Shown here piece after piece: positions 4,942-54,278 of a DNA stretch of 64,000 bases. Both the position numbers and the translations under genes were made by a program. Source of the DNA: an uncultured bacterium (GTDB taxonomy: Bacteria; Patescibacteriota; Minisyncoccia; Phycocordibacterales; DATDWN01); contig CAIOTC010000016.1 in the NCBI GenBank assembly GCA_903861205.1, positions 10,243 to 74,242 on the forward strand. Direction: 5' to 3'. The notes beneath the pieces are model-generated. The model was not told the origin of the DNA. It saw only the letters and a list, made by a program, of their open reading frames with translations, and made no database searches. The number at the start of each line of letters is the position of its first letter. Position 1 is the stretch's first letter.

Positions 4942-5025
4942 AATAGTTTTATAAGTTTAATAAGGTGTATAAGTTTAATAAGTTTTGCATTCTGACTTAT
5001 TCAACTTTTTAAACTTTTTCAACTT
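4942..5025. repeat. rpoB-rpoC intergenic hairpin element with multi-frame stop motif (gttgaaaaagtttaaaaagttgaataag on the coding strand)
   Basis: The motif overlaps the rpoB stop. Related copies follow infB (19931-19958) and rpsA (56008-56035). It is followed by inverted cttattaaact repeats. Confidence 0.5.
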
Positions 5026-8000
5026 CCCCTCCTCCTCTTTTAATTTGAACATCCAATGCCAGACCTCGCAGGTTGTTCAGAAGCACGTTAAATGACGCCG
5101 GTGTGTTGAGCTGGGTAATCGGTTCGCCTTTGACGATGGCGTCGAATGCCGCCGATCGTCCCAAAATGTCGTCCGACTTGATCGTCAAAATTTCCTGCAA
5201 AGTGTGAGCCGCGCCGTGTCCGAGAAGAGCCCAGACTTCCATTTCTCCGAATCGCTGTCCTCCGTTTTGAGCTTTTCCGCCGAGCGGTTGCTGAGTAATG
5301 AGTGAGTACGGTCCAATCGAACGCATGTGGATTTTGTCTTCCACCATGTGATGCAATTTCAAAATGTACATGTAGCCGACAGCAATATCTTTTTCGAATT
5401 TTTCTCCGGTGCGTCCGTCGTAAAGCGGAATTTTTCCATTCTCGGGAAAACCGGCTTTCTTCAATTCAGATTTTATTTCTTCATCCGTTGCTCCGACGAA
5501 TGGTGGAACAATAGCCTGGTAGCCGAGAGTGTTGGCCGCCAGTCCCAGGTGAATTTCCAAAATTTGTCCGAGGTTCATACGCGAAGGCACGCCAAGCGGT
5601 GTCAAAATGACATCGATCGGAGTTCCGTCCGCCATGTATGGCATGTCTTCCTCCGGCAAGATTCGCGAGATGACACCTTTGTTGCCGTGTCGTCCTGCCA
5701 ATTTGTCGCCGACAGAAATGTTTCTGACCTGCGCCACTTCTATATAAATTTGTTTGATGATTCCCGAATCAAGTTTGTCGCCTTTTTCGCGCGAGAAAAC
5801 TTGAACCTTGATGACACGTCCGCGCTTTCCGCCCTCCATTCTCTTTGACGTATCTTTGACGTCGCGGGCTTTGTCGCCGAAAAGCGATCGAAGTAGCCTC
5901 TCCTCCGGTGTCAGTTGTGTTTCGCCTTTCGGTGTGATTTTGCCGACCAGAATGTCGCCTGGACGAACCTCGGCTCCGACGCGAACGATGCCATCCTCGG
6001 CCAAGTTTTTCAGTTTCAGTTCACCGACGTTCGGAATGTCGCATGTCGTCACTTCCGGTCCGAGTTTGGTGTCGCGAACGTTGACCACGAATTCCTCGAT
6101 GTGAATTGAGGTGAATTTGCTGTTTTTGATAACGCGTTCAGAAAGAATAATAGCGTCTTCATAGTTTGATCCGCTCCATGACATGAAAGCCACCAGCATA
6201 TTTTGGCCGAGCGCGGTCTGGCCGTTTTCCGAAGCGGATGTGTCCGCCAAAACGTCGCCTTTCTTGACTTTGTCGCCGATCGAAACCGACGGTCGCTGAT
6301 GAAAACATGTAAAACCGTTTGTTCTTGAAAAATGAATCAGTTTATAAATAGTATCCTTGCCTTTGTTATCTTTGACGGTCACTTTGGTACTGTCGGCGCT
6401 TGTTACTATTCCGCTTTCGGCGGCAACAACCAAACGTCCGGTGTCTTTCAGGGCGTGAGTTTCCATGCCGGTAGCCACGAGCGGTGCTTCCGGAATGATG
6501 CACGGTGTGGCTTGCTTCTGCATGTTGGAAGCCATCAACGCTCTGGTTGAGTAGTCGTGATTGAGAAACGGAATCATCGACGTGGCAATCGAAAAGGCTT
6601 GATTGGTGGCCACATCCATGAAATCCACTTTGTTTTTTGGCGTCGTACTTGGATTTCCTTCGAAACGCACTTCAACTTCGTCCACCAAAATTTTTCCTTC
6701 ATCGTCATAAGGCGTGGCGGCGTGAGCGATGGCGAAGCTTTCCTCCTCCGACGCGTTCATATAAACAATCTCGTCGGTGATTTTTCCGTTTTTAACTTTG
6801 ACGTATGGAGTTTCAATCATGCCAAAATTGTTCAGTCGCGCATAAATAGCCAAACGCAAAACGAGACCGATGTTCGGGCCTTCCGGCGTGTGGATCGGAC
6901 AAATGCGTCCGTAGTGAGAATGGTGCACGTCGCGAACTTCAAAACCGGCGCGAGCGCGATTCAGTCCTCCGGCTCCGAGCGCGGAGAGCATTCGCAAATG
7001 TTCGATTTCGGCCAACGGATTTTCCTGTTGCATCAATTGAGCCAGCTGGTTGGTCGTGAAAAATTCTTTCATTCTGGCCTGAAGCGGTTTCGGAGAAATA
7101 AATTGGACAGGCAGTGTGACATCGGTATCGATGGTCGACATTCTGTTTTGAATGTTTCGTTTGATTTGCGCCATACCGGTGCGAATTTTTTGCTGGAAAA
7201 GTTCTCCGACAAAACGAACGCGTCGCGATCCGAGGTGATCGATATCGTCTTCCATCGCGCCGACTGTGTTATTAAGCAAAGCAATGTGAGAAACGATGGT
7301 CGTGACATCCTCGAGAGAAACTGTTTTTCGTTTCAACTCCTTTTCGCCCATGTCCTTGCCGAAGCGTTTGTTGAATCGGTATCGTCCGACAGGCGAAAGG
7401 TCGTATCTTTCGGTATCAAAAATGGAATTGACGAAATCGCGAGCATTTTCGGCCGTGGCCAAATCCCCGTCGCGAAGTCGTTTGTGTATGTCTATAAATG
7501 CGTCATCGAGCGTTTTGGCATGATCCTTGGCCAGCGTTTTTTCGATGGCTGTTTTGGTGTTTAGATCACCCTCAAAAAGTTTGACAATGTCTGTATCGGT
7601 GTGCGCGCCCAAAATACGCAGAAGTGCCGTGGCGGAAAACTTTCGCTTGCGGTCGATGCGAACGTAAATCAGTCCATCGGCGTCAGATTCGATTTCCACC
7701 CAAGCTCCGCGAGCCGGAATTATTTTGGCGCCAAAAAGTTTTCGCCCTTTGACTTCCGATGCGGTGAAAAATACTCCATATGATCGGGCCAGTTGGGGCA
7801 CAACCACGCGCTCGATGCCGGAAATAATGAAAGTTCCATGCGAAGTCATCAGTGGAAAATCAGCCATGAAAATTTCCTGCTCTTTGGTCGAGTTCAAAAT
7901 GAGATTTTTCAGGCGGACTTTGACTTTGAGCGGAGCTTCGTAGGAGAGTTTGTTGTCCTTGGCGTAATATTCGTCGTATTTTGGAGAGGCAAGCTCAAAA

Positions 8001-8209
8001 CCGGTGAAATCCAGCTGGAATTTCTTTTCCGAGTAGTCTTTGATCGAGGAAAATTCCTCGAAAACTTCTTTCAGTCCTTTTTCAATCAGCCACTTGAATG
8101 ATTCCACTTGCGGTTCAACAAAATTCGGCGCTTTGACAAAAGGCTCTTTGAACCTTCCAAAAAACTTTTGCGGTCGTGCACTTTGTGCGGTGTGTGTGGA
8201 TGTGGACAT
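5009..8209 (-). CDS. rpoB: DNA-directed RNA polymerase subunit beta
   Basis: 1073-aa ORF (GTG at 8230 or ATG at 8209, MSTSTHTAQ...). It has conserved beta-subunit blocks such as GGQRFGEMEVWALLGHGAAHTLQE. Confidence 0.95.
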   Translation of the reverse strand: MSTSTHTAQSARPQKFFGRFKEPFVKAPNFVEPQVESFKWLIEKGLKEVFEEFSSIKDYSEKKFQLDFTGFELASPKYDEYYAKDNKLSYEAPLKVKVRLKNLILNSTKEQEIFMADFPLMTSHGTFIISGIERVVVPQLARSYGVFFTASEVKGRKLFGAKIIPARGAWVEIESDADGLIYVRIDRKRKFSATALLRILGAHTDTDIVKLFEGDLNTKTAIEKTLAKDHAKTLDDAFIDIHKRLRDGDLATAENARDFVNSIFDTERYDLSPVGRYRFNKRFGKDMGEKELKRKTVSLEDVTTIVSHIALLNNTVGAMEDDIDHLGSRRVRFVGELFQQKIRTGMAQIKRNIQNRMSTIDTDVTLPVQFISPKPLQARMKEFFTTNQLAQLMQQENPLAEIEHLRMLSALGAGGLNRARAGFEVRDVHHSHYGRICPIHTPEGPNIGLVLRLAIYARLNNFGMIETPYVKVKNGKITDEIVYMNASEEESFAIAHAATPYDDEGKILVDEVEVRFEGNPSTTPKNKVDFMDVATNQAFSIATSMIPFLNHDYSTRALMASNMQKQATPCIIPEAPLVATGMETHALKDTGRLVVAAESGIVTSADSTKVTVKDNKGKDTIYKLIHFSRTNGFTCFHQRPSVSIGDKVKKGDVLADTSASENGQTALGQNMLVAFMSWSGSNYEDAIILSERVIKNSKFTSIHIEEFVVNVRDTKLGPEVTTCDIPNVGELKLKNLAEDGIVRVGAEVRPGDILVGKITPKGETQLTPEERLLRSLFGDKARDVKDTSKRMEGGKRGRVIKVQVFSREKGDKLDSGIIKQIYIEVAQVRNISVGDKLAGRHGNKGVISRILPEEDMPYMADGTPIDVILTPLGVPSRMNLGQILEIHLGLAANTLGYQAIVPPFVGATDEEIKSELKKAGFPENGKIPLYDGRTGEKFEKDIAVGYMYILKLHHMVEDKIHMRSIGPYSLITQQPLGGKAQNGGQRFGEMEVWALLGHGAAHTLQEILTIKSDDILGRSAAFDAIVKGEPITQLNTPASFNVLLNNLRGLALDVQIKRGGGEVEKV

Positions 8210-8587
8210 ATATATAGTGTAAATTAACACTGTTAATTAATTTGCAAAAACAAAAAACACACAAACGAAAATGAGCTCTTCCCCAAGAGCTTGTTTATTT
8301 TATTGGTCTTTAGCGATTGTTTCGCAAAATAGTATTTAAAATAGGGACCAATACCTGTTAATCCTCTTTTCTTCGGACGAAACTCAATCGGATGAAGTTA
8401 GGTTGAAGTATACTCTAAAGCTCCACCTCTTGTCAACCCTTTTATCACTTTATCGAAGTCAAGTCCAGCTTGTGCATATCTTTTTCGTTAAATAATGGCT
8501 AATAATATAAATATATTCGCATAATAATGATTGAAACCACTCAAATTAAGTCAACCAACTTATCCACATGTAATGCACAGGAGATTA

Positions 8588-8744
8588 GATTGCAATGTAT
8601 TTTTCCTCGACCGACCGTCGTCTCCTGCGGACGACGGTCTCTGATCCTCGGCCTGAACTTGTCAATGAGCCCCGCCCAAAAAGCGGGGTCGTTGACAAGT
8701 CCAAGCTTCAGGCCTGCGGAGCCGAGGAAAAATACATTGCAATC
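8588..8744. mobile_element. MITE-like palindromic element with 22-bp perfect terminal inverted repeats
   Basis: gattgcaatgtatttttcctcg (8588-8609) is the exact reverse complement of cgaggaaaaatacattgcaatc (8723-8744). Internal GC hairpins gaccgtcgtc/gacgacggtc and ccccgc/gcgggg. The TIR shares tcgaggaaaat with the 17614/52781 element. Confidence 0.5.
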
Positions 8745-8778
8745 GAATCTTCCGTGGTGAATTTGCATTCGCATTCAA

Positions 8779-8816
8779 GGTCTGGCCTTGGGAAATTGGG
8801 CATTAAAGGCCAGACC
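8779..8816. repeat. 38-bp hairpin repeat ggtctggccttgggaaattgggcattaaaggccagacc (copy 1), overlapping the MGMT 3' end
   Basis: 11-bp stem GGTCTGGCCTT/AAGGCCAGACC. A second copy (36/38 identical) sits at 16849-16886 inside iscS. Here it encodes the last five codons QRSGL and the TAA stop of the MGMT gene. Confidence 0.8.
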
Positions 8817-9081
8817 TTTGGAGAATTTTGCACCCCTCCTCTTCCAGTATTTTTCTTTTCTTTATAGTTCCCTTATTGTACCCGCCCAACTTCCCATCCG
8901 ACCGAATCACTCGGTGACACGGAATGTCCGGATCATGATTTGTATGCAAGATATTCCCCACAGCTCTAGACGCCAGTGGACTACCAGCTTTTTCCGCCAC
9001 TTCTTTATACGTTAAAACTTTTCCCTTCGGGATCTTCCTCACAACTTCAAAAACCCTTTCTGTAAATGTTTTCTTTGTCAT
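8803..9081 (-). CDS. Methylated-DNA-protein-cysteine methyltransferase (O6-alkylguanine alkyltransferase) DNA-binding/active-site domain protein
   Basis: 92 aa with the PCHRV active-site motif (HTNHDPDIPCHRVIRSDGKLGGY) typical of Ogt/MGMT C-terminal domains. Confidence 0.7.
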   Translation of the reverse strand: MTKKTFTERVFEVVRKIPKGKVLTYKEVAEKAGSPLASRAVGNILHTNHDPDIPCHRVIRSDGKLGGYNKGTIKKRKILEEEGCKILQRSGL

Positions 9082-9109
9082 AGAACCCTATATCATACCA
9101 ACATGAATT

Positions 9110-10813
9110 TTACAAAAACAACCTCACCAACCGAATTTTAAGATATGTAGATTTTTTCTTGTGTTTGGCCAGATAATTATAAATAGGTGCCAAAGTTTCG
9201 GTTTTGACTGTTTCAAATGCCTCGACAATATCGTCAAACTCACCGCGACGCAATTCCCTTTTGAGATAATCAACATCGGGGCACTGTTTTTTCTCTCTCA
9301 ATTTTTCAATGTGCGAAATAATGGTTTCCGGCGTGACCACTCGCCTGTCGGCAATTTCCGAAAGTGGCAGTTCTTGTTCCAAAAGTTCCTTGGTAAGCAT
9401 TTCCGTCGACTTTTTTGTTTTTTTCTCCAGCAATTTCACTTTCTTTTTTTCATCCGGCTCAATTTTACTCATAAATTCTCTCTGCTTTCCCAAAATTTCC
9501 TCGCCGGACATTAGAGTTAAATCGTTTTCCGCGTCCTCCGACAATTCTCTGAAATATTTGTCCTTTTCCAAAACTTCCGGATCAACACGCAGAGCCATTT
9601 CGTTGAAACCAATGAGCTTCATGCCGGCAAGCGATCGGACACGCGACAAGGCGACATATCCCATTCCAGCCACGAACGATTTCGACAAATCCACTTCCAT
9701 GGCATCAAGCGACATCCCCTGGCTTTTGTGCACGGTGATAGCCCAAGCCAAGCGAAGTGGAAACTGGGTAATTTCGGCTTTTGTTTTTCCATCCTCCTCG
9801 ATTTGCCATGACGTCGGCGAAACACTGATGAGCTCGCGACTGACCAGACGCACCTCAGGTTCGCCGTACTGATTGAAACGTTCCACCACGCCGAGCGTGC
9901 CGTTGACGTATTTTCCCTCCTGATGATTTTTGGTAAACATGACTTTGGCGCCGACTTTCAGCGACAAAACTTCCGGTGACAAACAATTTTTCTTCATCGT
10001 CTCCACCAAATGCCGCGAACCTGTCCAGATCATCTCGAAATCTTTTTGCTCGGCGGAAATGAGCGAGAGATATTTGTTGTTGATGATGTCCACATCAATA
10101 TTGTGTGTGAAAAGTTTTGTCGGCCCGGCTGCGACGAGACTCTCACCTGGTGTCCACGGCGTAGCAACGTTACACCCTGGTGTGAGTCCGGTCGCCTTTC
10201 TTTCCAACAGCTCACGAGTTTTATTACTAACTCTATTTTCCCTAATCTCATTTAAAATTTGCAAATATGCTTTGTCTTTTTGGCGGAACTGCTCGGAAAT
10301 ATAACAAACGGTAAAACCGGAATCCTGCCAGCTGTCCGCCTTGAAGGCAAACTGCGATTCTAAAATTTCTCCGCGTGTTACCGGTGGCAGTTGAAAAAAA
10401 TCTCCGCAGAGAACGATTTGCATTCCACCAAAAGGTTTTTCATTTCGTTTGAATTGCCGGCAAATCCAGTCGATCATATCGAGACGAAAATGGTGGAGCA
10501 TGGAAACTTCGTCGATAACCAAAACTTTAGCATTTTCAAAACGTTTGTAGAGATAGGCCTTTTGCATCATGTCGTCGATGTCGCGGTCGGTCAAAGTGTC
10601 GCGCACGCCAAGCCCCGACCACGAGTGAATGGTTTGCCCGCCGATATGAGTGGCCGCAATGCCCGTCGAGGCCGTAACCGCCACCGAAACCGCGTGCGAT
10701 TTGAGGTAGTCGATGTACTCGCGAAGCACATACGTTTTTCCGCTCCCCGCCGCGCCAGTCAAAAAAACATTCTTACCCATCTTCAAAATATCCAGCGCTT
10801 CTTTTTGTAACAT
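9110..10813 (-). CDS. PIF1-family ATP-dependent DNA helicase with C-terminal HTH-like extension
   Basis: Walker A FLTGAAGSGKT, VLVIDEVSML, CGDFFQLPPV, TVHKSQG. The C-terminal ~110 aa are basic and helical. Confidence 0.8.
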   Translation of the reverse strand: MLQKEALDILKMGKNVFLTGAAGSGKTYVLREYIDYLKSHAVSVAVTASTGIAATHIGGQTIHSWSGLGVRDTLTDRDIDDMMQKAYLYKRFENAKVLVIDEVSMLHHFRLDMIDWICRQFKRNEKPFGGMQIVLCGDFFQLPPVTRGEILESQFAFKADSWQDSGFTVCYISEQFRQKDKAYLQILNEIRENRVSNKTRELLERKATGLTPGCNVATPWTPGESLVAAGPTKLFTHNIDVDIINNKYLSLISAEQKDFEMIWTGSRHLVETMKKNCLSPEVLSLKVGAKVMFTKNHQEGKYVNGTLGVVERFNQYGEPEVRLVSRELISVSPTSWQIEEDGKTKAEITQFPLRLAWAITVHKSQGMSLDAMEVDLSKSFVAGMGYVALSRVRSLAGMKLIGFNEMALRVDPEVLEKDKYFRELSEDAENDLTLMSGEEILGKQREFMSKIEPDEKKKVKLLEKKTKKSTEMLTKELLEQELPLSEIADRRVVTPETIISHIEKLREKKQCPDVDYLKRELRRGEFDDIVEAFETVKTETLAPIYNYLAKHKKKSTYLKIRLVRLFL

Positions 10814-10865
10814 GCAAACATTGTATCAACCTTAAGTTCTCAAGTCTATTAAATTTAAATATTAT

Positions 10866-10895
10866 CAATCTACGCTATAGCTGAGATTGAGGAAT
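10866..10895. repeat. Left copy of direct repeat caatctacgctatagc..gattgaggaat flanking the Cas2-like ORF
   Basis: caatctacgctatagctgagattgaggaat. The right copy at 11306-11377 contains a perfect 22-bp palindrome. Confidence 0.6.
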
Positions 10896-11283
10896 TGTAA
10901 GATTTTGCTAATTTGAATGTTTTGAGTTTGTCTCCAATTTTTATTTCTTTCAAATATTCTAAAAAATCCTTAGGCAAAGGAGATGGTCCAACCCAGACAC
11001 TTTTCTGTATCATCACATATCCGAATCTTATCAGGTGTCGCCTAAACCAATCCCGTTCTTTCTTTTGATTTTCAGGAATATCATACATCAAAATTAAATT
11101 TTTCGGAGAACTTTTCTGAAATGGAGAATTGAAAGATGAATTATAATACGCTAGCTGTTTTTTAGTGATTGGAAAATTATTAGATGATTTTGATATTTGT
11201 TGATTCTGAGATTTATGTGATTTTTTCGAAACAGGAATTCCAAAAGCATTTACTCTTATTCCTTTGTAATAATAATTACTCAT
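10870..11283 (-). CDS. Cas2-like (VapD/Cas2 fold) small protein with low-complexity N-terminal extension; no CRISPR array nearby
   Basis: The C-terminal half NLILMYDIPENQKKERDWFRRHLIRFGYVMIQKSVWV...LKTFKLAKS matches the Cas2 pattern (beta1 YD[IV], KR..L.k.L..yG.R.Q.SVf, terminal l.fYRL). This is pattern recognition only. Confidence 0.35.
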   Translation of the reverse strand: MSNYYYKGIRVNAFGIPVSKKSHKSQNQQISKSSNNFPITKKQLAYYNSSFNSPFQKSSPKNLILMYDIPENQKKERDWFRRHLIRFGYVMIQKSVWVGPSPLPKDFLEYLKEIKIGDKLKTFKLAKSYNSSISAIA

Positions 11284-11305
11284 GTCTAAATTATACTACA
11301 TATTA

Positions 11306-11377
11306 CAATCTACGCTATAGCGTAGATTTGTATAAAAAAATGTTCTTCATTGGGTACCTCGATGAAGATTGAGGAAT
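11306..11377. repeat. Right copy of the direct repeat; contains the perfect palindrome aatctacgctatagcgtagatt (11307-11328)
   Basis: caatctacgctatagcgtagatt...gattgaggaat. It shares both ends with 10866-10895 but has about 40 extra bp between them. Confidence 0.6.
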
Positions 11378-11378
11378 A

Positions 11379-12122
11379 CTACGCTTGAATTCTTTTGAAA
11401 AACTCCGCGCCGATGTAGAGGCAAACGAAAGCGATAACAAAAAGAATAAGTGCATCAAGACCAAAAGAGAAAACATGTTGGCCGATGAGCGCTCCGCGAA
11501 TGCCGTCAACGGCATAGGACAAGGGATTGGCGTGCACTATTATATTAAACACCGTCGGCAATCCAACAATCGGAAAAAGCGCGCCGGAGAGAAAGAACAG
11601 TGGCATGACCAAAAAGTTGATGATGAGCGGAAAACTTTGCATGTCGTCGAGCTTGCTGGCAATCATTGTGCCGAACGCGGTGAAAAACAACGCCAGTAAA
11701 AACATGAAAACAATGGCCAGCGGAACTCCGGAAAGCGCCGGTTTAAATCCGGCCAAAAGCGTGATGAGCAAAACGATAATACCTTGAATAAAGGCCACCG
11801 TTGTCCCGCCTAGCGTTCGGCCGAGCATAATATTGAAACGCGACACCGGCGCAACAAGAGTTTCTTTCAAAAATCCGAATTGCTTGTCCCAAATAATTTC
11901 AATGCCGGAAAAAACGGCCGTGAACATGACAGTCATGGCAATAATACCCGGCGCTAAAAATTGGATGTAGCTTCCTTCGCCCGCTTTGGCAAAAGTGGAG
12001 CCAAATCCAAAACCGAAAGCAAAAAGAAAAAGCAGTGGTTGAGCCAGCGAGGCAAACATACGCTGTTTGCTTCTAACATATCTTTTCAATTGTCGTAACC
12101 ACAAAATGTAAATAGTAGACAT
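11379..12122 (-). CDS. ABC-2 type transporter permease
   Basis: Six predicted TM helices. The best start is ATG at 12122 (MSTIYILWLRQLKRY). The GTG-extended ORF to 12218 reads through the upstream repeat (FPRRRESRYLKLDSRLRGNDK) and is rejected. Confidence 0.7.
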   Translation of the reverse strand: MSTIYILWLRQLKRYVRSKQRMFASLAQPLLFLFAFGFGFGSTFAKAGEGSYIQFLAPGIIAMTVMFTAVFSGIEIIWDKQFGFLKETLVAPVSRFNIMLGRTLGGTTVAFIQGIIVLLITLLAGFKPALSGVPLAIVFMFLLALFFTAFGTMIASKLDDMQSFPLIINFLVMPLFFLSGALFPIVGLPTVFNIIVHANPLSYAVDGIRGALIGQHVFSFGLDALILFVIAFVCLYIGAEFFKRIQA

Positions 12123-12134
12123 TTTATTGTATTT

Positions 12135-12198
12135 GTCATTCCCGCGAAGGCGGGAATCTAATTTTAAATATCTGGATTCCCGCCTTCGCGGGAATGAC
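12135..12198. repeat. Composite REP-like palindrome: gtcattcccgcgaaggcgggaatc plus its inverted copy gattcccgccttcgcgggaatgac
   Basis: Each unit is itself a hairpin (ATTCCCGC / GCGGGAAT). The same family is at 54118-54207 and 56129-56190. Confidence 0.8.
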
Positions 12199-12205
12199 AG
12201 AAACA

Positions 12206-12994
12206 CTACCTGCCCCACATTCTATTTGTTAATCTTTTCGCATCCATACCCGTGCTTTCTTCGCGAATATGCTTCCCCGTCAATTCCAAAAAGGCATCTT
12301 CCAACGTGGCTGATTTGGTACTTTCTTTCAATTCTGCCGGCGTGCCAGAAGCCACGATGACACCCTGATCGATGATCGCCACTCTGTCGGCATTTTTGTC
12401 CGCCTCCTCCATGTAATGCGTGGTGAAAAAAACAGTCAGGCCTTCTTTTTGGTTGAGATTTTTTATATAACTCCACATGTGATTGCGCGTTTGAGGATCG
12501 AGACCAAGTGTCGGCTCGTCGAGAAACAGCACTTTCGGATGATGCAAAAGTCCGCGGGCAATTTCCAAACGACGCTTCATTCCGCCGGAAAAATCTTTGA
12601 CCAAACTGTCCTTCCTATCCCACAAATCGACAAGTTCGAGCAACTCCTGTATGCGCGGTTTGTAAACAGATTTCGGCACGGCGTACATGACAGCGTGCAG
12701 TTCCATGTTTTCGTATGCAGTCATTTCGGTATCGACGGACGGATCCTGAAAGACAATTCCGAACGAATGTCTAGCCTCGTCCGGATATTTGATGACATCA
12801 AAACCATTGAGCACGACAGACCCAGATGTAGGCTCGAGAAGCGTGGTCAACATTTTTATGCTCGTTGTTTTGCCGGCGCCATTGGGTCCCAGAAAAGCAA
12901 AATTCTCGCCTTGTTTGACGGAAAAAGTGATGTTGTTGACGGCTGTAAAATCTCCAAACTTTTTGGTGGCATCCTTGACTTCTATGATATTCAT
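12206..12994 (-). CDS. ABC transporter ATP-binding protein
   Basis: Walker A GPNGAGKTT, signature LSGGMKRRLEIA, Walker B LFLDEPTLGLD. It is the partner of the downstream permease. Confidence 0.9.
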   Translation of the reverse strand: MNIIEVKDATKKFGDFTAVNNITFSVKQGENFAFLGPNGAGKTTSIKMLTTLLEPTSGSVVLNGFDVIKYPDEARHSFGIVFQDPSVDTEMTAYENMELHAVMYAVPKSVYKPRIQELLELVDLWDRKDSLVKDFSGGMKRRLEIARGLLHHPKVLFLDEPTLGLDPQTRNHMWSYIKNLNQKEGLTVFFTTHYMEEADKNADRVAIIDQGVIVASGTPAELKESTKSATLEDAFLELTGKHIREESTGMDAKRLTNRMWGR

Positions 12995-13015
12995 CAAAGT
13001 ATCATATCACAAAAT

Positions 13016-13744
13016 CTAAAGTTTCGATGAAGAATTTTTTGACTTTTTCCACTTTTCTATCTCGGCGCGGTTTCCAGACAGTAATATTTTTGGCACTTTG
13101 TATTTTTTTCCTTTATATTCCAAAACTTCCGGACGAGTGTAAACGTCACTGCTCGCTGTGCGTGATTCCTCGAGTGAGTCAAAATTGCCGAGAACGCCCT
13201 CGACTTGGCGCGAAATACAATCAATCAAAATCATGGCTGGCAATTCCCCTCCGGTCAGCACAAAAGGTCCGACGGAAATTTCTTCCGTTTTGAAAATCTT
13301 TTTGACTCGCGCGTCAATCCCCTCGTACCTGCCGGAAATTAAAATGATGTCGGTGAATTTTGTCGCAACTTTTTTCGCATAGGTTGTATCAAATTGTTTG
13401 CCAGATGGAGAAAACCAAATAATAGAGATTCGAGATGAGAGTTTAGAGGTTAGAGATTTATTTTTTGTTTTTGTGTTTTTTCTAGACTCTTGTCTCTTGA
13501 CTCTTATCTCTATTTTCTTGAGCGCTGCTTCCACCGCTTTTACAACCGGAAGCGCTTGTATGACCATGCCTGGTCCGCCACTGTATGGCTTTTGGTCAAT
13601 ATGTCGAAATTTGTTGTCAGAAAAATCTCTCGGGTTGTAAAATTTTACCGAAATTTTCTTATCTTCAATGGCCCGCTTCAAAATCGACTCACCGAGGTAG
13701 GAGGTGAAACTGTCGGGAAATAATGTGATGATATGGAAATGCAT
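13016..13744 (-). CDS. trmD: tRNA (guanine37-N1)-methyltransferase TrmD carrying an in-frame low-complexity insertion
   Basis: MHFHIITLFPDSF...GRYEGIDARV...LTGGELPA are TrmD hallmarks. An extra about 35 aa (KKIEIRVKRQESRKNTKTKNKSLTSKLSSRISIIW) is encoded by an imperfect agag/ctct palindrome around 13425-13525. Confidence 0.85.
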   Translation of the reverse strand: MHFHIITLFPDSFTSYLGESILKRAIEDKKISVKFYNPRDFSDNKFRHIDQKPYSGGPGMVIQALPVVKAVEAALKKIEIRVKRQESRKNTKTKNKSLTSKLSSRISIIWFSPSGKQFDTTYAKKVATKFTDIILISGRYEGIDARVKKIFKTEEISVGPFVLTGGELPAMILIDCISRQVEGVLGNFDSLEESRTASSDVYTRPEVLEYKGKKYKVPKILLSGNRAEIEKWKKSKNSSSKL

Positions 13745-13840
13745 GAGAACAATTTGTAATTTTGTAATTTTTAATTTTTAAATAATTTTCAAATGTCCAA
13801 ATTTTTAAAAGAATACAATATTTTTGTGATTTAATCAAAT

Positions 13841-14196
13841 TCACCCTGTGATATTGCCCGGAGGGCACCCGTATCACAGGGTAAAATTTTTGCAAACAAA
13901 CAGACGGCCACGAATGGTCGTCTTTTTTAGCGGGAGTGGGGAGATTCTTACTGGAGGACTTCCCCACCCCTAATGGTTTCAACTCGGCTGCAGACCGAGG
14001 GCGGGCACCAGTAACCCCGCGCCAAGCGAAAACATAAAATTTTTTTATCCTCCGGAACATTTCGCAGTGCCGGTCGGACAGGCGTGTCGTAGGCCTAAAA
14101 TGGCCATCACTACCTTCCACTATCTATCCTAGCATACCCCACATTTTTTGTCAAGCGATTTTGGTGGAAAAATAAAAATACTTTTTCAAAATCAAA
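13841..14196. ncRNA. GC-rich, heavily structured intergenic segment where rimM would normally sit; candidate structured RNA of unknown class
   Basis: Nested perfect hairpins accctgtgata/tatcacagggt (13841-13881), gtggggag/cttccccac, ctcgg/ccgag and ggcc/ggcc. A plus-strand terminator-like hairpin (13902-13927) lies inside the span and a bidirectional terminator closes it at 14192-14224. No credible ORF. GC content is far above the local average. Confidence 0.3.
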
Positions 14197-14224
14197 AAAC
14201 ACGGCTTAAAACCGTGCTTTTTTG
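14192..14224. terminator. Bidirectional rho-independent terminator downstream of rpsP-khpA
   Basis: aaaaaacacggcttaaaaccgtgctttttttg: a CACGG/CCGTG stem with an A-tract 5' and a T-tract 3'. Confidence 0.7.
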
Positions 14225-14244
14225 ATAATCAAATTTTATTGAGA

Positions 14245-14568
14245 TTATAGTTTCAAATCGGCCATGGCTTCGTCAACGGTCTTGCTAGCTGAAACTGGTG
14301 ATTTAACTTCTCTCACCATTCCACCTTCCGGCTCGCTAATCTTTAGGTTAACGCGGGCGTTGTTTTTCATTCCAACAACGCGCAAAAGCGTTCTGATCGC
14401 TTTGGCGGTGTTGCCTTCTCGGCCAATAATTTTGCCCATATCAGCTCGGTTGACATCGAGTGTCATGAGCACGCCCATTTCGTCGACTGTTCTGGTAATC
14501 TTGACGTCTGCCGGATTCTCCACCAACGCTTTGACAACGAAATCCAAAAATTGTGTATCTTGTTCCAT
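14245..14568 (-). CDS. khpA: KH-domain RNA-binding protein (KhpA/YlqC family)
   Basis: VENPADVKITRTVDEMGVLMTLDVNRADMGKIIGREGNTAKAIRTLL is a KH GxxG motif. It sits in the conserved position after rpsP. Confidence 0.75.
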   Translation of the reverse strand: MEQDTQFLDFVVKALVENPADVKITRTVDEMGVLMTLDVNRADMGKIIGREGNTAKAIRTLLRVVGMKNNARVNLKISEPEGGMVREVKSPVSASKTVDEAMADLKL

Positions 14569-14628
14569 GAATTCTATCGTTATATTAATAAAGTCTTACT
14601 GCCTATAAGTATAGTATGAACGAAATCT

Positions 14629-15009
14629 CTATGCAACAGGTGTTTCTGTCGGCTCTTCTACTGGCGCTTCCGGAGCAGATTCCTCCGCCGCGACTTCCGC
14701 TTTGGTTTCCTCCGCAACAACTTCTTTCTTGATCGCCTTCTTCAGAGGCAATTTGTTTATTTTCTTGCCGGAAATTATTTTTTTGTCCACAAGCAGATTG
14801 TGAACGGTATCGGAAAGGCCTGCGCCTTTGGACATCCAGTGTGTTATTTTCTCTGTATCAAACTTTGCATCCTGTCCGTGTCGCGCATCGAAATTGCCCA
14901 GCACTTCCAAATATTTTCCGCTCTTAGTCGAGTTTTTCGAGTCAGTCAAAACGAGCCTGAATATCGGTTCGTGTATGCGTCCAACTCTTTGTAGTCGTAT
15001 TTTTAACAT
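14629..15009 (-). CDS. rpsP: 30S ribosomal protein S16 with Lys/Glu/Ala-rich C-terminal tail
   Basis: MLKIRLQRVGRIHEPIFRLVLTDS...LEVLGNFDARHG. The ORF track extends the N-terminus from a TTG at 15045. Confidence 0.9.
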   Translation of the reverse strand: MLKIRLQRVGRIHEPIFRLVLTDSKNSTKSGKYLEVLGNFDARHGQDAKFDTEKITHWMSKGAGLSDTVHNLLVDKKIISGKKINKLPLKKAIKKEVVAEETKAEVAAEESAPEAPVEEPTETPVA

Positions 15010-15049
15010 GTTTGCAATGGTATCAGAATAAAGCGTCGCGGTCAACCTG

Positions 15050-15871
15050 CTATTGGTTTACAATATTCTGCTCTTTATGAATAACAGCTACCGGTGTAAA
15101 CGATCCGGAAACGCCCGAGGACAATTTCATTCCCACCAAATCACCTGACAAATTGAAAAATGGACTGCCTGAAACCAAATCTTTGGTTGAAACATCCGAC
15201 TGAACCCCGGAAATATATTTGACCGTCGACGTTCCCGTGCCAGACTCCTTCATCACAAACGACGACACTCTGCCGACAGCCACGGCGTTTTGCGTTTCGC
15301 CGCCAAGGCCTACAACCGTTTGGCCAAGCTGTAAATCGGCAGAGGCGATAGTGGCCGGCGAGAAATCATATTTTGTTTTTTCCGGCAAATTTACTTTGAA
15401 GAAAATACTGTTCGTGTCTTTGTCGACGCCGAGCGGTACCAGCTTCCACTCGCTTCCGTCGCTCCAAACCGCGCTGTAAACGCTGTCAGCGACGATCGTT
15501 TGTCTGTCCGCCGCGATCAACCCATCTTTACTCACAACCACGCCAATACCGTAGAAAATTTTGGTACCAAGGGAATTCGTTTCGCTGATGCGGACAATAC
15601 TTTTGATGTTTTTGTTTATCGAGCTGATAATCATGTCCTCTTCCTTGACCACCACGGTCGTCACATCTTTCGACGGCGGATTGATGGCCGAGGAAATGCT
15701 GTCCGGCACAACAGTCTGGATGGTGCGTTCAACGACGTTGTTTATGTTGCGCGTCACTTCCACCGGCGCCTGCTGGAGAAGCGAGACAGTCATAATACCG
15801 GTGGCGATTGACGTCACAAAAGTGATGAGGAGAACGAGGAGAATTAGTTGGTGTCTGTTAAGATGTTCCAT
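15050..15871 (-). CDS. Membrane-anchored trypsin-like (S1C/HtrA-like) peptidase-domain protein, possibly catalytically degenerate
   Basis: N-terminal TM. GIGVVVSKDGLIAADRQTI aligns to the HtrA GSGFII..TNNHVV block with Q at the His position. LVSGSPFFNLSGDLVGM aligns to GNSGGPLVNLNGEVIG. No PDZ domain. Confidence 0.45.
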   Translation of the reverse strand: MEHLNRHQLILLVLLITFVTSIATGIMTVSLLQQAPVEVTRNINNVVERTIQTVVPDSISSAINPPSKDVTTVVVKEEDMIISSINKNIKSIVRISETNSLGTKIFYGIGVVVSKDGLIAADRQTIVADSVYSAVWSDGSEWKLVPLGVDKDTNSIFFKVNLPEKTKYDFSPATIASADLQLGQTVVGLGGETQNAVAVGRVSSFVMKESGTGTSTVKYISGVQSDVSTKDLVSGSPFFNLSGDLVGMKLSSGVSGSFTPVAVIHKEQNIVNQ

Positions 15872-15893
15872 TTTTGTGTTCGAATGAATTATA

Positions 15894-17168
15894 TCACATC
15901 ACAATTTTTTTCAAAGCTTTGACCAATACGTCAATGTCTTTTTTTGTCGTCGTTCGGCCGAGCGTGACGCGCAAACTGGAGGCGCTACAATTTTTGCGAC
16001 CAAGTTCGGAGATGACGTACGACGAAGAATTTTCTTTGCTCGTTTGACACGACGACGAATATGAAGTAGCGATGCCCTCCACATCCAAAGCGACGACGAT
16101 GTACTCACTGTCTGGCGCAGGCATATCAGCCATGGCTGAAAAACAAATATTGATGTTGTTTGGCAATCTGTCAGTCTGCGAGCCGTTCAGTTTGGCGTTC
16201 GGGAAAGCCTGGCAAATTTTTTCGATTCCGTAATCACGGATTTTTTGTAGTCGAGCCGATTCCGACTGGCGCAAATTTTCTGCCAGCTCTAGCGCTTTGG
16301 CCATGCCAACCATTCCCTCGACATTTTCCGTACCGCTGCGCAATCCGCCTTGCTGTCCACCGCCAAACATGATCGATTTTATTTTCACGCCCGTTCGCAC
16401 GTACAAAATTCCCACACCTCGCGGACCATGCATTTTGATACCATCGAGTGTCATCAAATCCACGCCAAGTTTTGCAACATCCAGCGGACAATACAAACCG
16501 GCTTGGCAGGCGTCAACATGAAAAATTGGAAATTTTTCATCAATTTTCAATTTACAATTTTTAATTTTTAATGAATTTTTTAATTTCTCAATTTTCCAAT
16601 TTTTAATTGCTTTTCCGATTTCTTTGATTGGCTGGATTGTGCCGATTTCGTTGTTGGCGTACATGACCGAAACCAAAACTGTGTTTTCTTTGATCGCAGC
16701 CAAAATATCTTTCGGCGAAACAAGTCCATCCTCCGAAACTCCAACGTAAGTTACTTCCCCACCGCGTCGTTCAATTTCCTTGCAAACTTCCAAAATAGCC
16801 GGATGCTCGATTCTGGTAGTAACAATGTGCGGAATGAATTTAGCACCCGAGGTCTGGCCTTGGGAAATTGGGCACCAAAGGCCAGACCTCTGGATCTCCT
16901 CAAACACACCCAAAAGCGCCAAGTTGTCCGACTCGGTTCCTCCGGAAGTGAAAATAATTTCGTTGGCTCGCGTGCCCAAAACCCTGGCGATTTTTTCTCG
17001 CGACTCCTTCATCACTTCCTTCGCCTTCATCCCCTCGCCATACAACGCTGACGGATTGGCAAAATTTTTCGCAGAATATTTCGCCATCGCCCCACTCACC
17101 TCTTTGGCCACAGGTGTAATCGACACATAATCCAAAAATATTCTTTTTTTGTTTTTTCGAGAAATCAT
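15894..17168 (-). CDS. iscS: Cysteine desulfurase (IscS/NifS family) with two in-frame repeat-derived insertions
   Basis: TSGGTESDN, HVDACQAG, HKMHGPRGVGILYV, GGGQQGGLRSGTENV. Best start is ATG at 17168 (MISRKNKKRIFLDY); the track extends from a TTG at 17291. Insert 1 (QRSGLWCPISQGQTSGA) is encoded by the 16849-16886 hairpin repeat. Insert 2 (NWKIEKLKNSLKIKNCKLKIDEK) is encoded by AT-rich repeat 16521-16616. Confidence 0.85.
   Translation of the reverse strand: MISRKNKKRIFLDYVSITPVAKEVSGAMAKYSAKNFANPSALYGEGMKAKEVMKESREKIARVLGTRANEIIFTSGGTESDNLALLGVFEEIQRSGLWCPISQGQTSGAKFIPHIVTTRIEHPAILEVCKEIERRGGEVTYVGVSEDGLVSPKDILAAIKENTVLVSVMYANNEIGTIQPIKEIGKAIKNWKIEKLKNSLKIKNCKLKIDEKFPIFHVDACQAGLYCPLDVAKLGVDLMTLDGIKMHGPRGVGILYVRTGVKIKSIMFGGGQQGGLRSGTENVEGMVGMAKALELAENLRQSESARLQKIRDYGIEKICQAFPNAKLNGSQTDRLPNNINICFSAMADMPAPDSEYIVVALDVEGIATSYSSSCQTSKENSSSYVISELGRKNCSASSLRVTLGRTTTKKDIDVLVKALKKIVM
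16849..16886. repeat. Hairpin repeat ggtctggccttgggaaattgggcaccaaaggccagacc (copy 2), in-frame inside iscS
   Basis: Differs from copy 1 only at cattaaagg versus caccaaagg. Those two changes remove the TAA that terminates the MGMT gene in copy 1. Confidence 0.8.
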
Positions 17169-17199
17169 TATGTCAATAGAATAACATGAAAAATGAGAC

Positions 17200-17228
17200 T
17201 TGACAAAAAATTGGTGGTGGGTAATATA
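17200..17228 (+). promoter_or_regulatory. Sigma70-type promoter for ORF 17245 (TTGACA, 17-nt spacer, AATATA), with GGAGG RBS at 17235-17239
   Basis: cTTGACAaaaaattggtggtgggtAATATAaaaatcGGAGGtaaatATG. Confidence 0.6.
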
Positions 17229-17244
17229 AAAATCGGAGGTAAAT

Positions 17245-17541
17245 ATGTCGACAAAAAACGTTCCATTGATAATGACGGACGAAATTGCCAAGGCACTTTA
17301 CAACGAACTTTCCATGTTTGGTCGTGTTCAAGTAACCGATGAGTTGGCATTTGTAGCTGCGAGATGGCAGAAAAACCGAATTATTCAAGAGCTAAAGGTT
17401 TTTTTAGCTCACCACCAAAAAAACTTGGATGAGTTGAATAGAAACCCAAGACCTCAGCTCGCGACAACAACGACCTATATAAAAGGAATTACTGAAGGAA
17501 AAATTGAAACGTTAAAATCTTTGATCGCTATCTTGGAATAA
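17245..17541 (+). CDS. Hypothetical protein (98 aa)
   Basis: Clean ORF with a consensus promoter and RBS and a downstream terminator. No motif recognised. Confidence 0.5.
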   Translation: MSTKNVPLIMTDEIAKALYNELSMFGRVQVTDELAFVAARWQKNRIIQELKVFLAHHQKNLDELNRNPRPQLATTTTYIKGITEGKIETLKSLIAILE

Positions 17542-17583: not shown

Positions 17584-17613
17584 GCAAAATAAATTCGAAA
17601 ATGACACTAAACA

Positions 17614-17793
17614 AATTTTGTCGAGGAAAATCATTTTGGGCGCATTGCGGAATGCGTGAAGACATGAGCAGGAAGAAAAATCCCAGCAGGGATTTATTCT
17701 GGCGACCAAAATGATTTTCCTCGACAAAATTTGTGGTCTCGAATAGTTCGCTCACACCCGGTGATCACGTTGCTGCGCCGTGGACACCAGGTG
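17614..17793. mobile_element. MITE-like palindromic element, copy 1 (25-bp TIRs aaattttgtcgaggaaaatcatttt / aaaatgattttcctcgacaaaattt) plus adjacent cacccggtg...caccaggtg hairpin module
   Basis: Core 17614-17732, hairpin module 17755-17793. The core and hairpin module recur in inverse orientation at 52726-52969, with about 85-90% core identity. Confidence 0.7.
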
Positions 17794-20374: not shown

Positions 20375-20446
20375 GGCCTGGTAGCCAAGTAGAAAGGCGT
20401 TCCTCTGCAAAAGGAATATGCGCGGGTGCGATTCCCGCCCAGGCCT
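20375..20446 (+). tRNA. tRNA-Cys (GCA)
   Basis: Acceptor ggcctgg/ccaggcc, anticodon loop ctGCAaa, T-arm gcgggtgcgattcccgc, discriminator U. CCA is not encoded. Confidence 0.75.
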
Positions 20447-20477
20447 CAGAAAAAGCAAAACTTTTTCTAACAAGTTT

Positions 20478-20559
20478 GCCCGAGTGGCGGAATTGGCATA
20501 CGCGCACGACTTAAGATCGTGTTCCGAAAGGAATGTGGGTTCGATGCCCACCTCGGGCA
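20478..20559 (+). tRNA. tRNA-Leu (TAA)
   Basis: Acceptor gcccgag/ctcgggc, E. coli-like D-arm tggcggaattggcatacgcg, anticodon stem cacga/tcgtg with loop ctTAAga, long variable arm ttccgaaaggaa, T-arm gtgggttcgatgcccac. The anticodon loop is uninterrupted, so there is no intron. Confidence 0.8.
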
Positions 20560-20612
20560 CTTTGAAAAGAAAAACTGTAAATGAAAATTTCTTTAAGATA
20601 TGGACTCATGAA

Positions 20613-21302
20613 ATGAGTTATGTTTTAGGCTATGTTGCGGCAGATGGATGTATATTCAAAGATAAAACAAGAGAAAATTCTTGGGTTTTTACTATAACCT
20701 CAAAAGACAAAAGCCATTTATATAAAATTAAAAAAGTATTAAGTTCAGAATATAAAATTTCTCAAAAACCAAACGGTACGGGTGGCATAGCTTACCATAT
20801 ACAGATTCGTAATAATACCCTTTGTAAAGATTTGTTAAATCTTGGTATTACACCCAAAAAAACTTACGATTTGAAACCACTTTTAATACCAACAAAATTT
20901 TTAAGTGATTTTGTACGTGGCTTTTTTGATGGCGATGGAAGTGTATATATTTATGAGGTTAATAATACACCACAAATCAAACTTGGATTTGTTAGTGTAA
21001 GCCTACCTTTTATTAAAGATTTAAATGATAAACTTTGTAAAAAATTAAAGATACCTCTCAAAATAATCCACTCTTATGAAATGAGTGGAAGAGCAACTAA
21101 ATACACTGTTGATTTTTATGTAGATGATAGTAAAAAATTTTACAAATATATTTATGGTAACGAACCAACCATTTATCTTTCTAGAAAAAGAAAAATATTT
21201 GAAAAATGGAATCGAATAAATAGAAGGTCTTATTCTAAAAAATCATATCCGTCTAAAATAGGATGGCACCTGAATTCAAGTAATGTAGAAATTACAAAAT
21301 AA
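20613..21302 (+). CDS. LAGLIDADG-family homing endonuclease (two-motif, free-standing between tRNA genes)
   Basis: MSYVLGYVAADGCIF (motif 1) and VRGFFDGDGSVYI (motif 2). The track ORF from 20418 overlaps both upstream tRNAs, so the start was trimmed to ATG 20613. Confidence 0.8.
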   Translation: MSYVLGYVAADGCIFKDKTRENSWVFTITSKDKSHLYKIKKVLSSEYKISQKPNGTGGIAYHIQIRNNTLCKDLLNLGITPKKTYDLKPLLIPTKFLSDFVRGFFDGDGSVYIYEVNNTPQIKLGFVSVSLPFIKDLNDKLCKKLKIPLKIIHSYEMSGRATKYTVDFYVDDSKKFYKYIYGNEPTIYLSRKRKIFEKWNRINRRSYSKKSYPSKIGWHLNSSNVEITK

Positions 21303-22943: not shown

Positions 22944-22949
22944 ACTATG

Positions 22950-23174
22950 CTATCCCTCGGCACAAGCCAAGCTAATGTTACCCACAATGCTAAACCGGTA
23001 AGTAATCTCGATAGACACCTTGACCAAAACTGGATGCCTCTTTCGTTCGTGCCATACGTCGAACATGAAAGCGGCCATTTGGTAGTATTGGTTTCGCATG
23101 AGCTCAATTTCTTTGTCGCTTTTTGAAGCGTAGGATTTTGGCAGTAATTTTCTGCAAGCGTTGATCGTTAACAT
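22950..23174 (-). CDS. Hypothetical protein (74 aa) in phage-like cluster
   Basis: Same strand as, and contiguous with, the recombinase cluster. Confidence 0.3.
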   Translation of the reverse strand: MLTINACRKLLPKSYASKSDKEIELMRNQYYQMAAFMFDVWHERKRHPVLVKVSIEITYRFSIVGNISLACAEG

Positions 23175-23178
23175 ATAT

Positions 23179-30101: not shown

Positions 30102-30105
30102 ATTT

Positions 30106-31584: not shown

Positions 31585-31585
31585 T

Positions 31586-47848: not shown

Positions 47849-47892
47849 GGACTGCCCTTTGTATTTTTGGGTAATTGCTACAAAGGGCAGTC
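47849..47892. repeat. REP-like hairpin upstream of the RAYT gene (ggactgccctttgta ... tacaaagggcagtc)
   Basis: Perfect 15/14-bp inverted arms with a 15-bp loop. The unit tacaaagggcagtc recurs at 48579. Confidence 0.7.
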
Positions 47893-47910
47893 TTTTGTAT
47901 AATTATTGGT

Positions 47911-48567: not shown

Positions 48568-48578
48568 AAAACCATAAT

Positions 48579-48618
48579 TACAAAGGGCAGTCCTTTGTAA
48601 CTTTGTAACCTTTGTACA
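48579..48618. repeat. REP-like hairpins downstream of the RAYT gene (tacaaagggcagtcctttgta, then repeated ctttgta units)
   Basis: acaaagg-gcagtc-cctttgt palindrome sharing the unit with 47879-47892. Confidence 0.65.
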
Positions 48619-48672
48619 GAAAGCAAAAAAGTGGAAAAGAAAAAGTGCCGGTTCCCCGACACTCTGATTTGC

Positions 48673-54070: not shown

Positions 54071-54117
54071 AAAATTTTAAATTTCAAATTCTAAATTTTA
54101 AATGAATTTTTAGTTCT

Positions 54118-54207: not shown

Positions 54208-54278
54208 ACAAAACACAAAACAAAAGCCGTCATCCCGAAGGGTAACGGCTGTGCAGGGCCTAAACCTTGCGTATTAGA

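Follow-up and report, generated by a model that had tools for sequence, protein, structure and literature searches.

A GC-rich, hairpin-dense segment occupies positions 13841 to 14224 of the window, a 64,000-nt stretch of contig CAIOTC010000016.1 from an uncultured bacterium of the Patescibacteriota, or candidate phyla radiation (CPR), where it lies in the gap between khpA and trmD. We tentatively favor the view that it forms the body of a small minus-strand transcription unit, independent, non-coding and confined to this lineage, in the sense of the surrounding operon, and give this reading a little less than an even chance. In this model transcription of khpA would stop at a bidirectional terminator (14224..14192), and ~40 nt further on a promoter, P1 (14154..14126), would start an RNA at around position 14120. 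The RNA would cross a chain of GC-rich hairpins and end either at hairpin H2, with a length of ~195-225 nt, or at hairpin H1, with a length of ~280 nt; trmD would be transcribed from its own promoter, P2 (13838..13810). Selection would act on P1, on the position of the terminator and on P2, and would leave the sequence of the RNA body free. The hairpins would most plausibly act in cis, where they would stop and buffer transcription on the way from khpA/P1 to the trmD promoter and would stabilize the RNA; a conserved fold that works in trans is a less plausible option. The segment would then be either an orphan, fast-evolving small RNA (sRNA) or a transcribed buffer. We infer transcription of the segment, its strand, the ends of the RNA and its function from the DNA sequence, and the minus strand in particular because of P1 and by analogy with two other core types, A and B, in related genomes.

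Conserved flanks enclose an unrelated interior in sister lineages

Closer relatives of the window were reached via their TrmD proteins, whose named homologues come from Candidatus Zambryskibacteria, Parcubacteria and Patescibacteria metagenome-assembled genomes and mark the source of the window as a Parcubacteria/Zambryskibacteria-like CPR bacterium. Four of these loci (L094, L096, L097 and L098) have non-coding gaps of 357-498 nt whose ends can be aligned to the window, as can those of a fifth (L095), with a gap of ~360 nt after correction of the trmD start; two further loci have short gaps, of 67 nt in L090, where the synteny is the same, and of 152 nt in L087. The shared 5' flank spans ~120 nt and comprises the khpA terminator and the motif TTGACA-17-TGnTA...T, while the shared 3' flank reads ATTTGATTA..AAAAATTATTGTATTGT, followed by 6 nt and the trmD ATG. 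Identity is ~74-85% in the 5' flank and 75-95% in the short 3' flank, against only 37-57% between the flank-sharing lineages at four-fold degenerate sites of khpA and trmD. At that level neutral DNA is near saturation and an unconstrained segment would be expected to be unalignable; the excess of flank identity over the four-fold sites therefore places both flanks under purifying selection.

Between P1 and P2 the sequence is unrelated from group to group. The window carries a GC-rich interior of 278 nt; L094, L095 and L096 share a core of ~200 nt (type A), and L097 and L098 share one of ~185 nt that is A-rich with two GC hairpins (type B). Local and semi-global alignments among the three cores, made in search of residual homology, score no better than shuffles, and shared k-mers occur at chance level. 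Types A and B fill the promoter-to-terminator interval exactly, and each is closed by a strong terminator on the sense strand, with U6-7. L094 and L095 agree at 202 of 202 positions of the type A core, with flanks at ~78%; a reading of this as an island of selection was rejected, as windowed alignment shows that the two contigs are identical for >1 kb downstream, bar one 120-nt patch at P2. The pair is a recombination mosaic with its breakpoint in the conserved P1, and so provides no evidence on constraint of the core.

Six contigs of the same species (L001-L006) are 100% identical to the window over all 500 nt of the gap, so that covariation in the core helices is unobtainable from them. The first-pass annotation had put the segment forward as a structured RNA candidate to be examined for conservation and covariation in relatives, the lack of which would speak against it, and such a lack is essentially what the relatives show. 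The description of it as non-coding, hairpin-dense, terminator-bounded and outside any described family stands; its body is not conserved, since the flanks align and the sequence in the slot is unrelated in sister lineages. An unrelated body in sisters marks a species-specific oddity and not a missed housekeeping RNA. The comparison of core types gives no evidence for a conserved fold, and on these alignments the segment does not appear to belong to a conserved structured-RNA family; at best it would encode a lineage-specific RNA.

Predicted promoters of the putative RNA and of trmD

P1 (14126..14154, minus strand) is predicted to be a functional promoter of the sigma-70 type with an extended -10 element, TTGACA, 17 nt and TGc-TAGGAT (10 of 12, with the TG). 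Across the window, L094, L095 and L097 its -35 box and the TGn do not change, nor does the -10 box at positions 1, 2 and 6 (T1/A2/T6); positions 3-5 vary, and the similarity ends 1-2 nt past the -10 box. This pattern is the signature of a working promoter, and the conservation of P1 across lineages makes transcription of the segment likely. The predicted transcript body would be the variable core (13842..14121, minus strand; GC 0.53), which runs from hairpin H7 to H1 with an expected transcription start site (TSS) at ~14120 +/- 2. The 13-mer CTTGACAAAAAAT in the -35 context of P1 also heads a promoter-like site ahead of an open reading frame (ORF) at 17199 that has a Shine-Dalgarno (SD) sequence. 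A metagenome scan with the P1 pattern returned one further L094-type contig only.

P2 (13810..13838, minus strand) consists of TTGATT, 17 nt and TATTCT. In relatives it reads TTGATT-17-TATTGT and ends 6 nt before the trmD ATG, a leaderless-type layout, and it is kept in L099 and also in L101, where khpA is not upstream. In the window, an AT-rich repeat unit (13745..13808) that is absent from relatives is inserted between P2 and the trmD ATG. The rpsP gene of the window has a similar layout, TTGACC-17-TACCAT and 7 nt, then the ATG at 15010. No SD sequence lies between hexamers and ATG in rpsP (window 15010-15045) or in trmD of L094 (2790-2825) and L097 (2440-2477). Because these promoter-like hexamers end 6-7 nt before an ATG that has no SD sequence, the layouts suggest that leaderless mRNAs are common in this clade.

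Hairpins, terminators and folding of the segment

The stems described in the first-pass annotation are all present. H1 (13840-13885), the terminal long hairpin, has 11 perfect pairs, or 14 on the minus strand with a G.U, and stands at the terminator site of core types A and B; its U-tract is lost in the window (GAAUUUGAUU). H2 (13902-13923, with a tail to 13929) is a canonical intrinsic terminator on the plus strand, with 9 bp including one G.U and then TTTTTT, in agreement with the plus-strand terminator-like hairpin that had been marked at 13902-13927. On the minus strand H2 contains an A.C mismatch and is followed by GTTTGTTTG (GUUUGUUUG tail), and its energy is -9.1 kcal/mol, compared with -13.1 kcal/mol on the plus strand. 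H3 (13932-13970) has a 10-bp GC-rich stem and a structured 18-nt loop (-24.0 kcal/mol plus, -19.7 kcal/mol minus), and the chain is completed by hairpins H4 (13983-14000), H5 (14001-14022), H6 (14046-14080) and H7 (14092-14105). The hairpin loops measure 4-18 nt. The intrinsic terminator of khpA (14192..14224, minus strand) is bidirectional, with an A-tract, a GC hairpin and a T-tract, of which L094, L095 and L097 retain the hairpin and the T-tract; the annotation had rightly read it as separating the segment from rpsP-khpA.

The fold of the 500-nt gap is more stable than all 100 dinucleotide shuffles (z = -4.2 on the minus and -4.6 on the plus strand). Minimum free energy (MFE) and centroid structures are chains of local hairpins with no long-range rod. 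Total folding energy is strand-neutral (-106.7 vs -105.4 kcal/mol), and the choice of strand from hairpin energies or G.U asymmetry was abandoned, as the signals were mixed. The GC content of the core (13842-14119) is 52.9%, compared with 43.8% for the window, which places it in the top 3.8% of 280-nt windows. In a GC-regression scan the GC-corrected fold of the core ranks only 57th among 1824 windows (z = -2.2), and several other intergenic stretches of the window are more structured. The claim that the segment is much more GC-rich than its surroundings is true mainly relative to the AT-rich ends of the spacer, since neighboring genes reach 0.47-0.52 GC. A 10-nt direct repeat, TAATCAAATT, at 13832..13841 and 14226-14235 brackets the reported segment exactly; by our estimate ~0.5 such pairs are expected by chance in AT-rich DNA, and the pair is not significant alone.

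Gene order and coding potential

The minus strand carries rpsP (15045..14629, with ATG 15010 as the probable true start), khpA (14568..14245), the 500-nt gap, trmD (13744..13016) and a gene for an ABC ATPase, in that order. The first three genes are assigned by Pfam to S16, KH_KhpA-B and tRNA_m1G_MT, respectively, and every gene from 1255 to 17291 is on the minus strand. Residues ~78-105 of TrmD (window 13430-13510) form a low-complexity insertion rich in lysine, arginine and serine, which differs in length and sequence in every relative.

The segment itself is non-coding DNA, as had been noted from the lack of a plausible ORF in the gap. Six-frame Pfam searches of the gap (E <= 10) gave no domain in any frame, neither RimM nor PRC. 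An ORF of 143 aa (14120..13689, minus strand) crosses P2 and the AT-rich repeat and overlaps trmD by 56 nt; it has no Pfam match, finds only itself among 1.84 billion representative proteins and has no equivalent in L094, L095 or L097. Its codon-usage score is -0.12, in the wrong-frame range; real genes score at least 0.067. Two small ORFs on the minus strand are speculative and have no counterpart in the other core types. ORF1 (14045..14107; 20 aa, MAILGLRHACPTGTAKCSGG) has GGAAGG ahead of it and a codon score of 0.03, which is uninformative at that length. ORF2 (13979..14035; 18 aa, MFSLGAGLLVPALGLQPS) is hydrophobic, with GGAGGA 12 nt upstream and CUN or CCN at six of its 18 codons; the idea that it is an m1G37-sensing leader peptide was dropped, as no counterpart exists in the other core types.

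Searches for known RNA and mobile-element families

Rfam 15, applied to the whole window at gathering thresholds, returned four tRNAs elsewhere and nothing in the gap. In E-value mode (E <= 10, relaxed filters, 13600-14400), the Rfam scan that the first-pass annotation had proposed assigned no family and gave sub-threshold noise only. ARAGORN found no tRNA or transfer-messenger RNA (tmRNA) in the gap. RNase P RNA, signal recognition particle (SRP) RNA, tmRNA and 6S RNA all went unmatched in the gap at Rfam E <= 10, with ARAGORN used for tmRNA, and the earlier failure to place the segment among RNase P, SRP, tmRNA or tRNA by signature is borne out. Rfam searches of L094, L097 and 20 related loci were likewise without a match; weak hits to rli38 and the L20 leader in the Rfam searches were dismissed as noise from AT-rich sequence plus a terminator. 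No sequence similar to the segment, as expected of a housekeeping-RNA orthologue, occurs in ~75 relatives with khpA beside trmD. A 6S RNA was also rejected on structure, the fold being a hairpin chain and not rod-like. A riboswitch, a T-box and a ribosomal-protein leader were rejected because Rfam gave no match in the window, L094 or L097 and the region is not conserved between lineages.

Comparisons with DNA collections were equally negative. Phage sequences searched by blastn with each of the three core types, and plasmids searched with the window core, gave one 25-nt chance match only, and blastn and nhmmer searches of the gap against 107 related loci matched nothing beyond the flanks. Three scans of viral contigs yielded one chance 20-mer, in a high-GC phage ORF (L104), which was rejected. 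No second copy of any core hairpin was found in the 64 kb or in the 107 related loci, and the segment has no terminal inverted repeats; with the flanking repeat pair within chance, an element of the miniature inverted-repeat transposable element (MITE), repetitive extragenic palindrome (REP) or PATE type was rejected.

The khpA-trmD spacer in relatives

We examined khpA-trmD spacing in 80 species representatives, all Paceibacteria. In the ~75 that have khpA on the fetched locus it lies upstream of trmD, with a gap of 0-200 nt in ~47, and larger gaps hold unrelated genes such as toxin-antitoxin (TA) pairs, NUDIX genes and genes for membrane proteins. The segment had been described as occupying the slot where rimM normally lies. 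This does not hold: rimM is absent from the position between khpA and trmD across the clade, so nothing 'replaces' it in the window. A rimM pseudogene remnant was rejected for the same reason and because the six-frame Pfam searches were empty.

Spacers of relatives contain other hairpin elements, among them a ~120-nt long hairpin, an 81-nt two-hairpin element and three-way-junction hairpins, none of which is in the window gap; their presence marks the spacer as a dynamic region. The ~120-nt long-hairpin element has the ends AGAACTTTCA.ATTTGG...CCAAATCTGAAAGTTCT and directly follows khpA in several relatives. Its copies are at L007 2280-2390, L009 2788-2909, L087 2860-2900, L093 1745-1856, L094 2325-2445 and L106 2154-2277 and 2373-2498, the second copy in L106 lying between the trmD promoter and ATG; the window has no copy. 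The 81-nt element, AGGTGAGAAGTGAT.TTATCACTTCG...GTGAAAGGTGTACTG, is found with 86-90% identity at different loci of three or four genomes (L105 2246-2326 and 2363-2445, in tandem in the khpA-trmD gap; L007 3726-3807; L106 232-309; L107 86-161), and may represent either a family of RNAs or a mobile element of small size. A protein with a PaaX-middle/Cas2-like domain is encoded near the locus (window 10870-11283), and an ORF that fills the khpA-trmD gap of L018 (2428-2832) resembles it, by eye only.

Alternative explanations

Several observations weigh against an independent transcription unit. The sense strand of the core has no canonical terminator, given the A.C mismatch in H2 and the lost U-tract of H1, so that transcription from P1 may read through into trmD; since H2 is a textbook terminator on the plus strand only, a short antisense RNA is also conceivable. 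In energy the plus strand suits H2 and H3 better, and the minus strand H1 and H4-H6. None of the searches found a homologue of the window core outside the same-species contigs, the khpA-trmD spacer gains and loses small hairpin elements among relatives, and the unrelated bodies of the sister lineages fit an absence of function as well as a fast-evolving function.

It is possible, if rather unlikely, that the segment is non-functional filler. The spacer would then be a hot spot for insertion and deletion, the core would be debris of palindromic insertions or of template-switch hairpins, and P1 would be kept for some other purpose, such as read-through into trmD. Such turnover fits the high variability of the slot in ~75 relatives, which may be filled by TA pairs, NUDIX genes, genes for membrane proteins or long hairpin elements or be nearly empty, the insertion of an AT-rich repeat unit between P2 and trmD in the window itself, the several palindromic repeat families and Y1 (IS200-like) transposase of the window, and the unalignable bodies of the cores. 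However, the core hairpins are single-copy in the 64 kb and 107 related loci and lack terminal inverted repeats, random insertions would not be expected to make the variable part the exact promoter-to-terminator interval in three lineages, and the purifying selection on P1 would be left to explain. The conserved P1 could instead be the promoter of trmD itself, with a long structured 5' leader in which H2 and H1 serve as attenuators. This is improbable, although the window has no canonical sense-strand terminator before trmD and the leaderless-style promoters hint at unusual expression signals in the clade. In types A and B a strong terminator with a U-tract directly precedes P2, which is conserved independently of khpA and P1 (L101, L099); a leader that senses a ligand or tRNA would be expected to be conserved, and no riboswitch or T-box model matches; and no leader peptide is common to the core types.

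The plus-strand terminator at H2 suggests another arrangement, a convergent sense/antisense pair akin to a type I TA system, in which the mRNA from P1 would encode the 18-aa peptide and a plus-strand sRNA of ~100 nt (H1, an AU-rich linker and the H2 terminator) would overlap its 3' end. ORF2 is uncharged and hydrophobic with GGAGGA 12 nt upstream, H2 is canonical on the plus strand only (G.U there vs A.C on the minus strand), and a stem-loop, an AU-rich linker and a terminator make up a classic sRNA layout. We nevertheless consider it distinctly improbable, as no convincing plus-strand promoter was found (none reached the scan threshold), the peptide is very short, unconserved and absent from types A and B, its codon score is uninformative, and there is no family-level match. 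That the segment belongs to a known RNA class (6S, SRP, RNase P, tmRNA, a riboswitch or a TIGR-type array) but is too divergent for the models to detect has been largely refuted and is very improbable. RNAs of CPR bacteria can be atypical, and the stem-loop arrays of TIGR systems, which are present in CPR bacteria, show no conservation of repeats (PMC12045711). Even so, Rfam gave no match at E <= 10 with relaxed filters and none in relatives, a housekeeping RNA would not be expected to be swapped for unrelated sequence in sister lineages, and the fold is not a 6S-type rod. For a TIGR array the loops of 4-18 nt are too short, since by our arithmetic two 8-12-nt spacers plus boxes need at least ~28 nt, and no Nop, reverse transcriptase (RT), Cas or TnpB domain occurs among the 42 window ORFs scanned. 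Hardly credible is a leaderless protein-coding gene for the 143-aa ORF: it would start with a GTG at the predicted TSS, 5 nt past the P1 -10 box, and gene callers annotate it on some contigs, but it matches only itself, has no Pfam domain and wrong-frame codons, runs through P2, the AT-rich repeat and the start of trmD, and is without equivalent in L094, L095 and L097.

Other repeats and elements in the window

The genome of the window is rich in palindromic elements. The AT-rich unit at 13745-13808 is 86% identical over 59 nt to 58667-58722, and further partial copies exist. Its family, with AAATTTTTAAA / AATTACAAAATTAC units, has copies at 13745-13808, 58660-58760, 53334-53403, 54070-54110 and 16556-16608; it is spread over intergenic DNA and seems also to lie inside an aminotransferase ORF as KLKNSLKIKNCKLKI. 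Upstream of rpoB, a multi-branched element of ~190 nt (8575-8760) is closed by a perfect 22-bp stem, GATTGCAATGTATTTTTCCTCG...CGAGGAAAAATACATTGCAATC; with an MFE of -110 kcal/mol it is the most structured stretch of the window, and it has no Rfam match at the gathering threshold. A 42-nt palindromic element, RAGGTCTGGCCTTGGGAAATTGGGCA..AAAGGCCAGACCTY, has two copies, at 8777-8818 and 16849-16890. The latter is inside the class-V aminotransferase ORF (15894..17291), apparently in frame as ...GLWCPISQGQTSG..., and is reminiscent of the Rickettsia palindromic elements that are inserted in genes. The palindromic repeat ATTCCCGC...GCGGGAAT is found at 12138-12196, 54142-54210 and 56130-56195, with a 22-bp stem in the copy near 12137-12196, and gives rise to spurious 'SFPRRRES...LDSRLRGND' ORFs. 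At 17611-17735 a perfect 28-bp inverted repeat surrounds two inner hairpins, one of them AAATCCC-AGCA-GGGATTT, with no Rfam match. Three-way hairpin elements in the khpA-trmD gaps of L052, L058, L060 and L079 include a comparable hairpin with an AGCA/CAGC loop but a different stem (AATCCC, AATTCC, AATTTT), and the elements could form a structured family with compensatory changes.

A Y1 (IS200-like, PF01797) transposase ORF of 230 aa (47875-48567) is flanked by ACAAAGGGCAGTC hairpin repeats at 47850-47892 and 48575-48620, a layout of the RAYT or IS200/IS605 type. A link between this transposase and the core was rejected, as the flanking hairpins are unrelated to it. A mobile and defence cluster (20418-23721, 27780-32758 and 49016-52657) includes a LAGLIDADG ORF with tRNA genes on either side, a large serine recombinase directly next to tRNA-Lys, a fragment of a recombinase and the R, M and S genes of a type I restriction-modification system. 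An intein is present in GyrA. Four large ORFs, at 33654-37295 (1213 aa), 39034-40128 (364 aa), 42148-43323 (391 aa) and 45869-47155 (428 aa), went unmatched in Pfam at E <= 1e-5.

Significance and comparison with known systems

If the segment is transcribed, it would be among very few candidate sRNA loci described for CPR/Patescibacteria, a group whose regulatory RNAs are, to our knowledge, almost unknown. The pattern would represent a natural example of the turnover of an sRNA-type gene with its expression signals kept. The rpsP-khpA-trmD cluster of these reduced genomes appears to be split into separately promoted units, with no rimM. More generally, clusters of GC-rich hairpins are common in CPR intergenic DNA and are alone no evidence of a conserved structured RNA. 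A more adventurous idea, to which we assign a slim chance, is that the interval from P1 to the terminator is a socket for swappable RNA cassettes in Zambryskibacteria-like CPR, at which unrelated structured RNAs are exchanged at exact transcript boundaries. The segment would then be a hypervariable, lineage-specific RNA, perhaps one that serves as guide, decoy or defence RNA to an effector whose gene lies elsewhere, and its divergence would not be neutral drift.

Among known systems, the TIGR-Tas arrays of CPR bacteria consist of tandem stem-loops with two 8-12-nt spacers in the loops, box C/D motifs and an adjoining Nop-domain Tas gene (PMC12045711). Like them, the segment is a tandem row of hairpins in a CPR genome that differ from one another and show no conserved repeat, but its loops are too short for dual spacers, it has no recurrent box C/D-like motif, and no Nop-domain (Tas) gene was found among the scanned ORFs. 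Elements of the REP/REPIN, MITE or Rickettsia palindromic kind are likewise short, GC-rich intergenic palindromes, and this genome has such families as well as a Y1 transposase; the core differs from them in being single-copy in 64 kb, in having no terminal inverted repeats and in being unrelated to the repeat families of the window or of relatives. Type I TA loci with convergent RNAs that overlap at their 3' ends have the architecture of txpA/RatA and bsrG/SR4 of B. subtilis. The segment resembles them in a small hydrophobic ORF with an SD sequence and an opposite-strand terminator on its 3' side, and departs from them in a peptide of only 18 aa without a charged tail, in the lack of an antisense promoter in our scan and in having neither conservation nor a family match.

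The likeness to intergenic insulators and to complex or bidirectional intrinsic terminators lies in several GC hairpins with A- and T-tracts, of which that of the khpA terminator (H8) and H2 are bidirectional in design, and in the position between an operon for ribosomal proteins and a gene with a separate promoter. Insulators, however, do not require a promoter, and the conserved P1 is not explained by insulation alone. Orphan bacterial sRNA genes differ from the segment in that no clean U-tract terminator is present on the sense strand in the window, and in that promoter and position are conserved here around a body that shares nothing between lineages. Like such genes, the segment would be a stand-alone unit with a strong predicted promoter, a hairpin-rich body of ~200-280 nt and a terminal hairpin, set between two unrelated transcription units, with a body that turns over rapidly between relatives.

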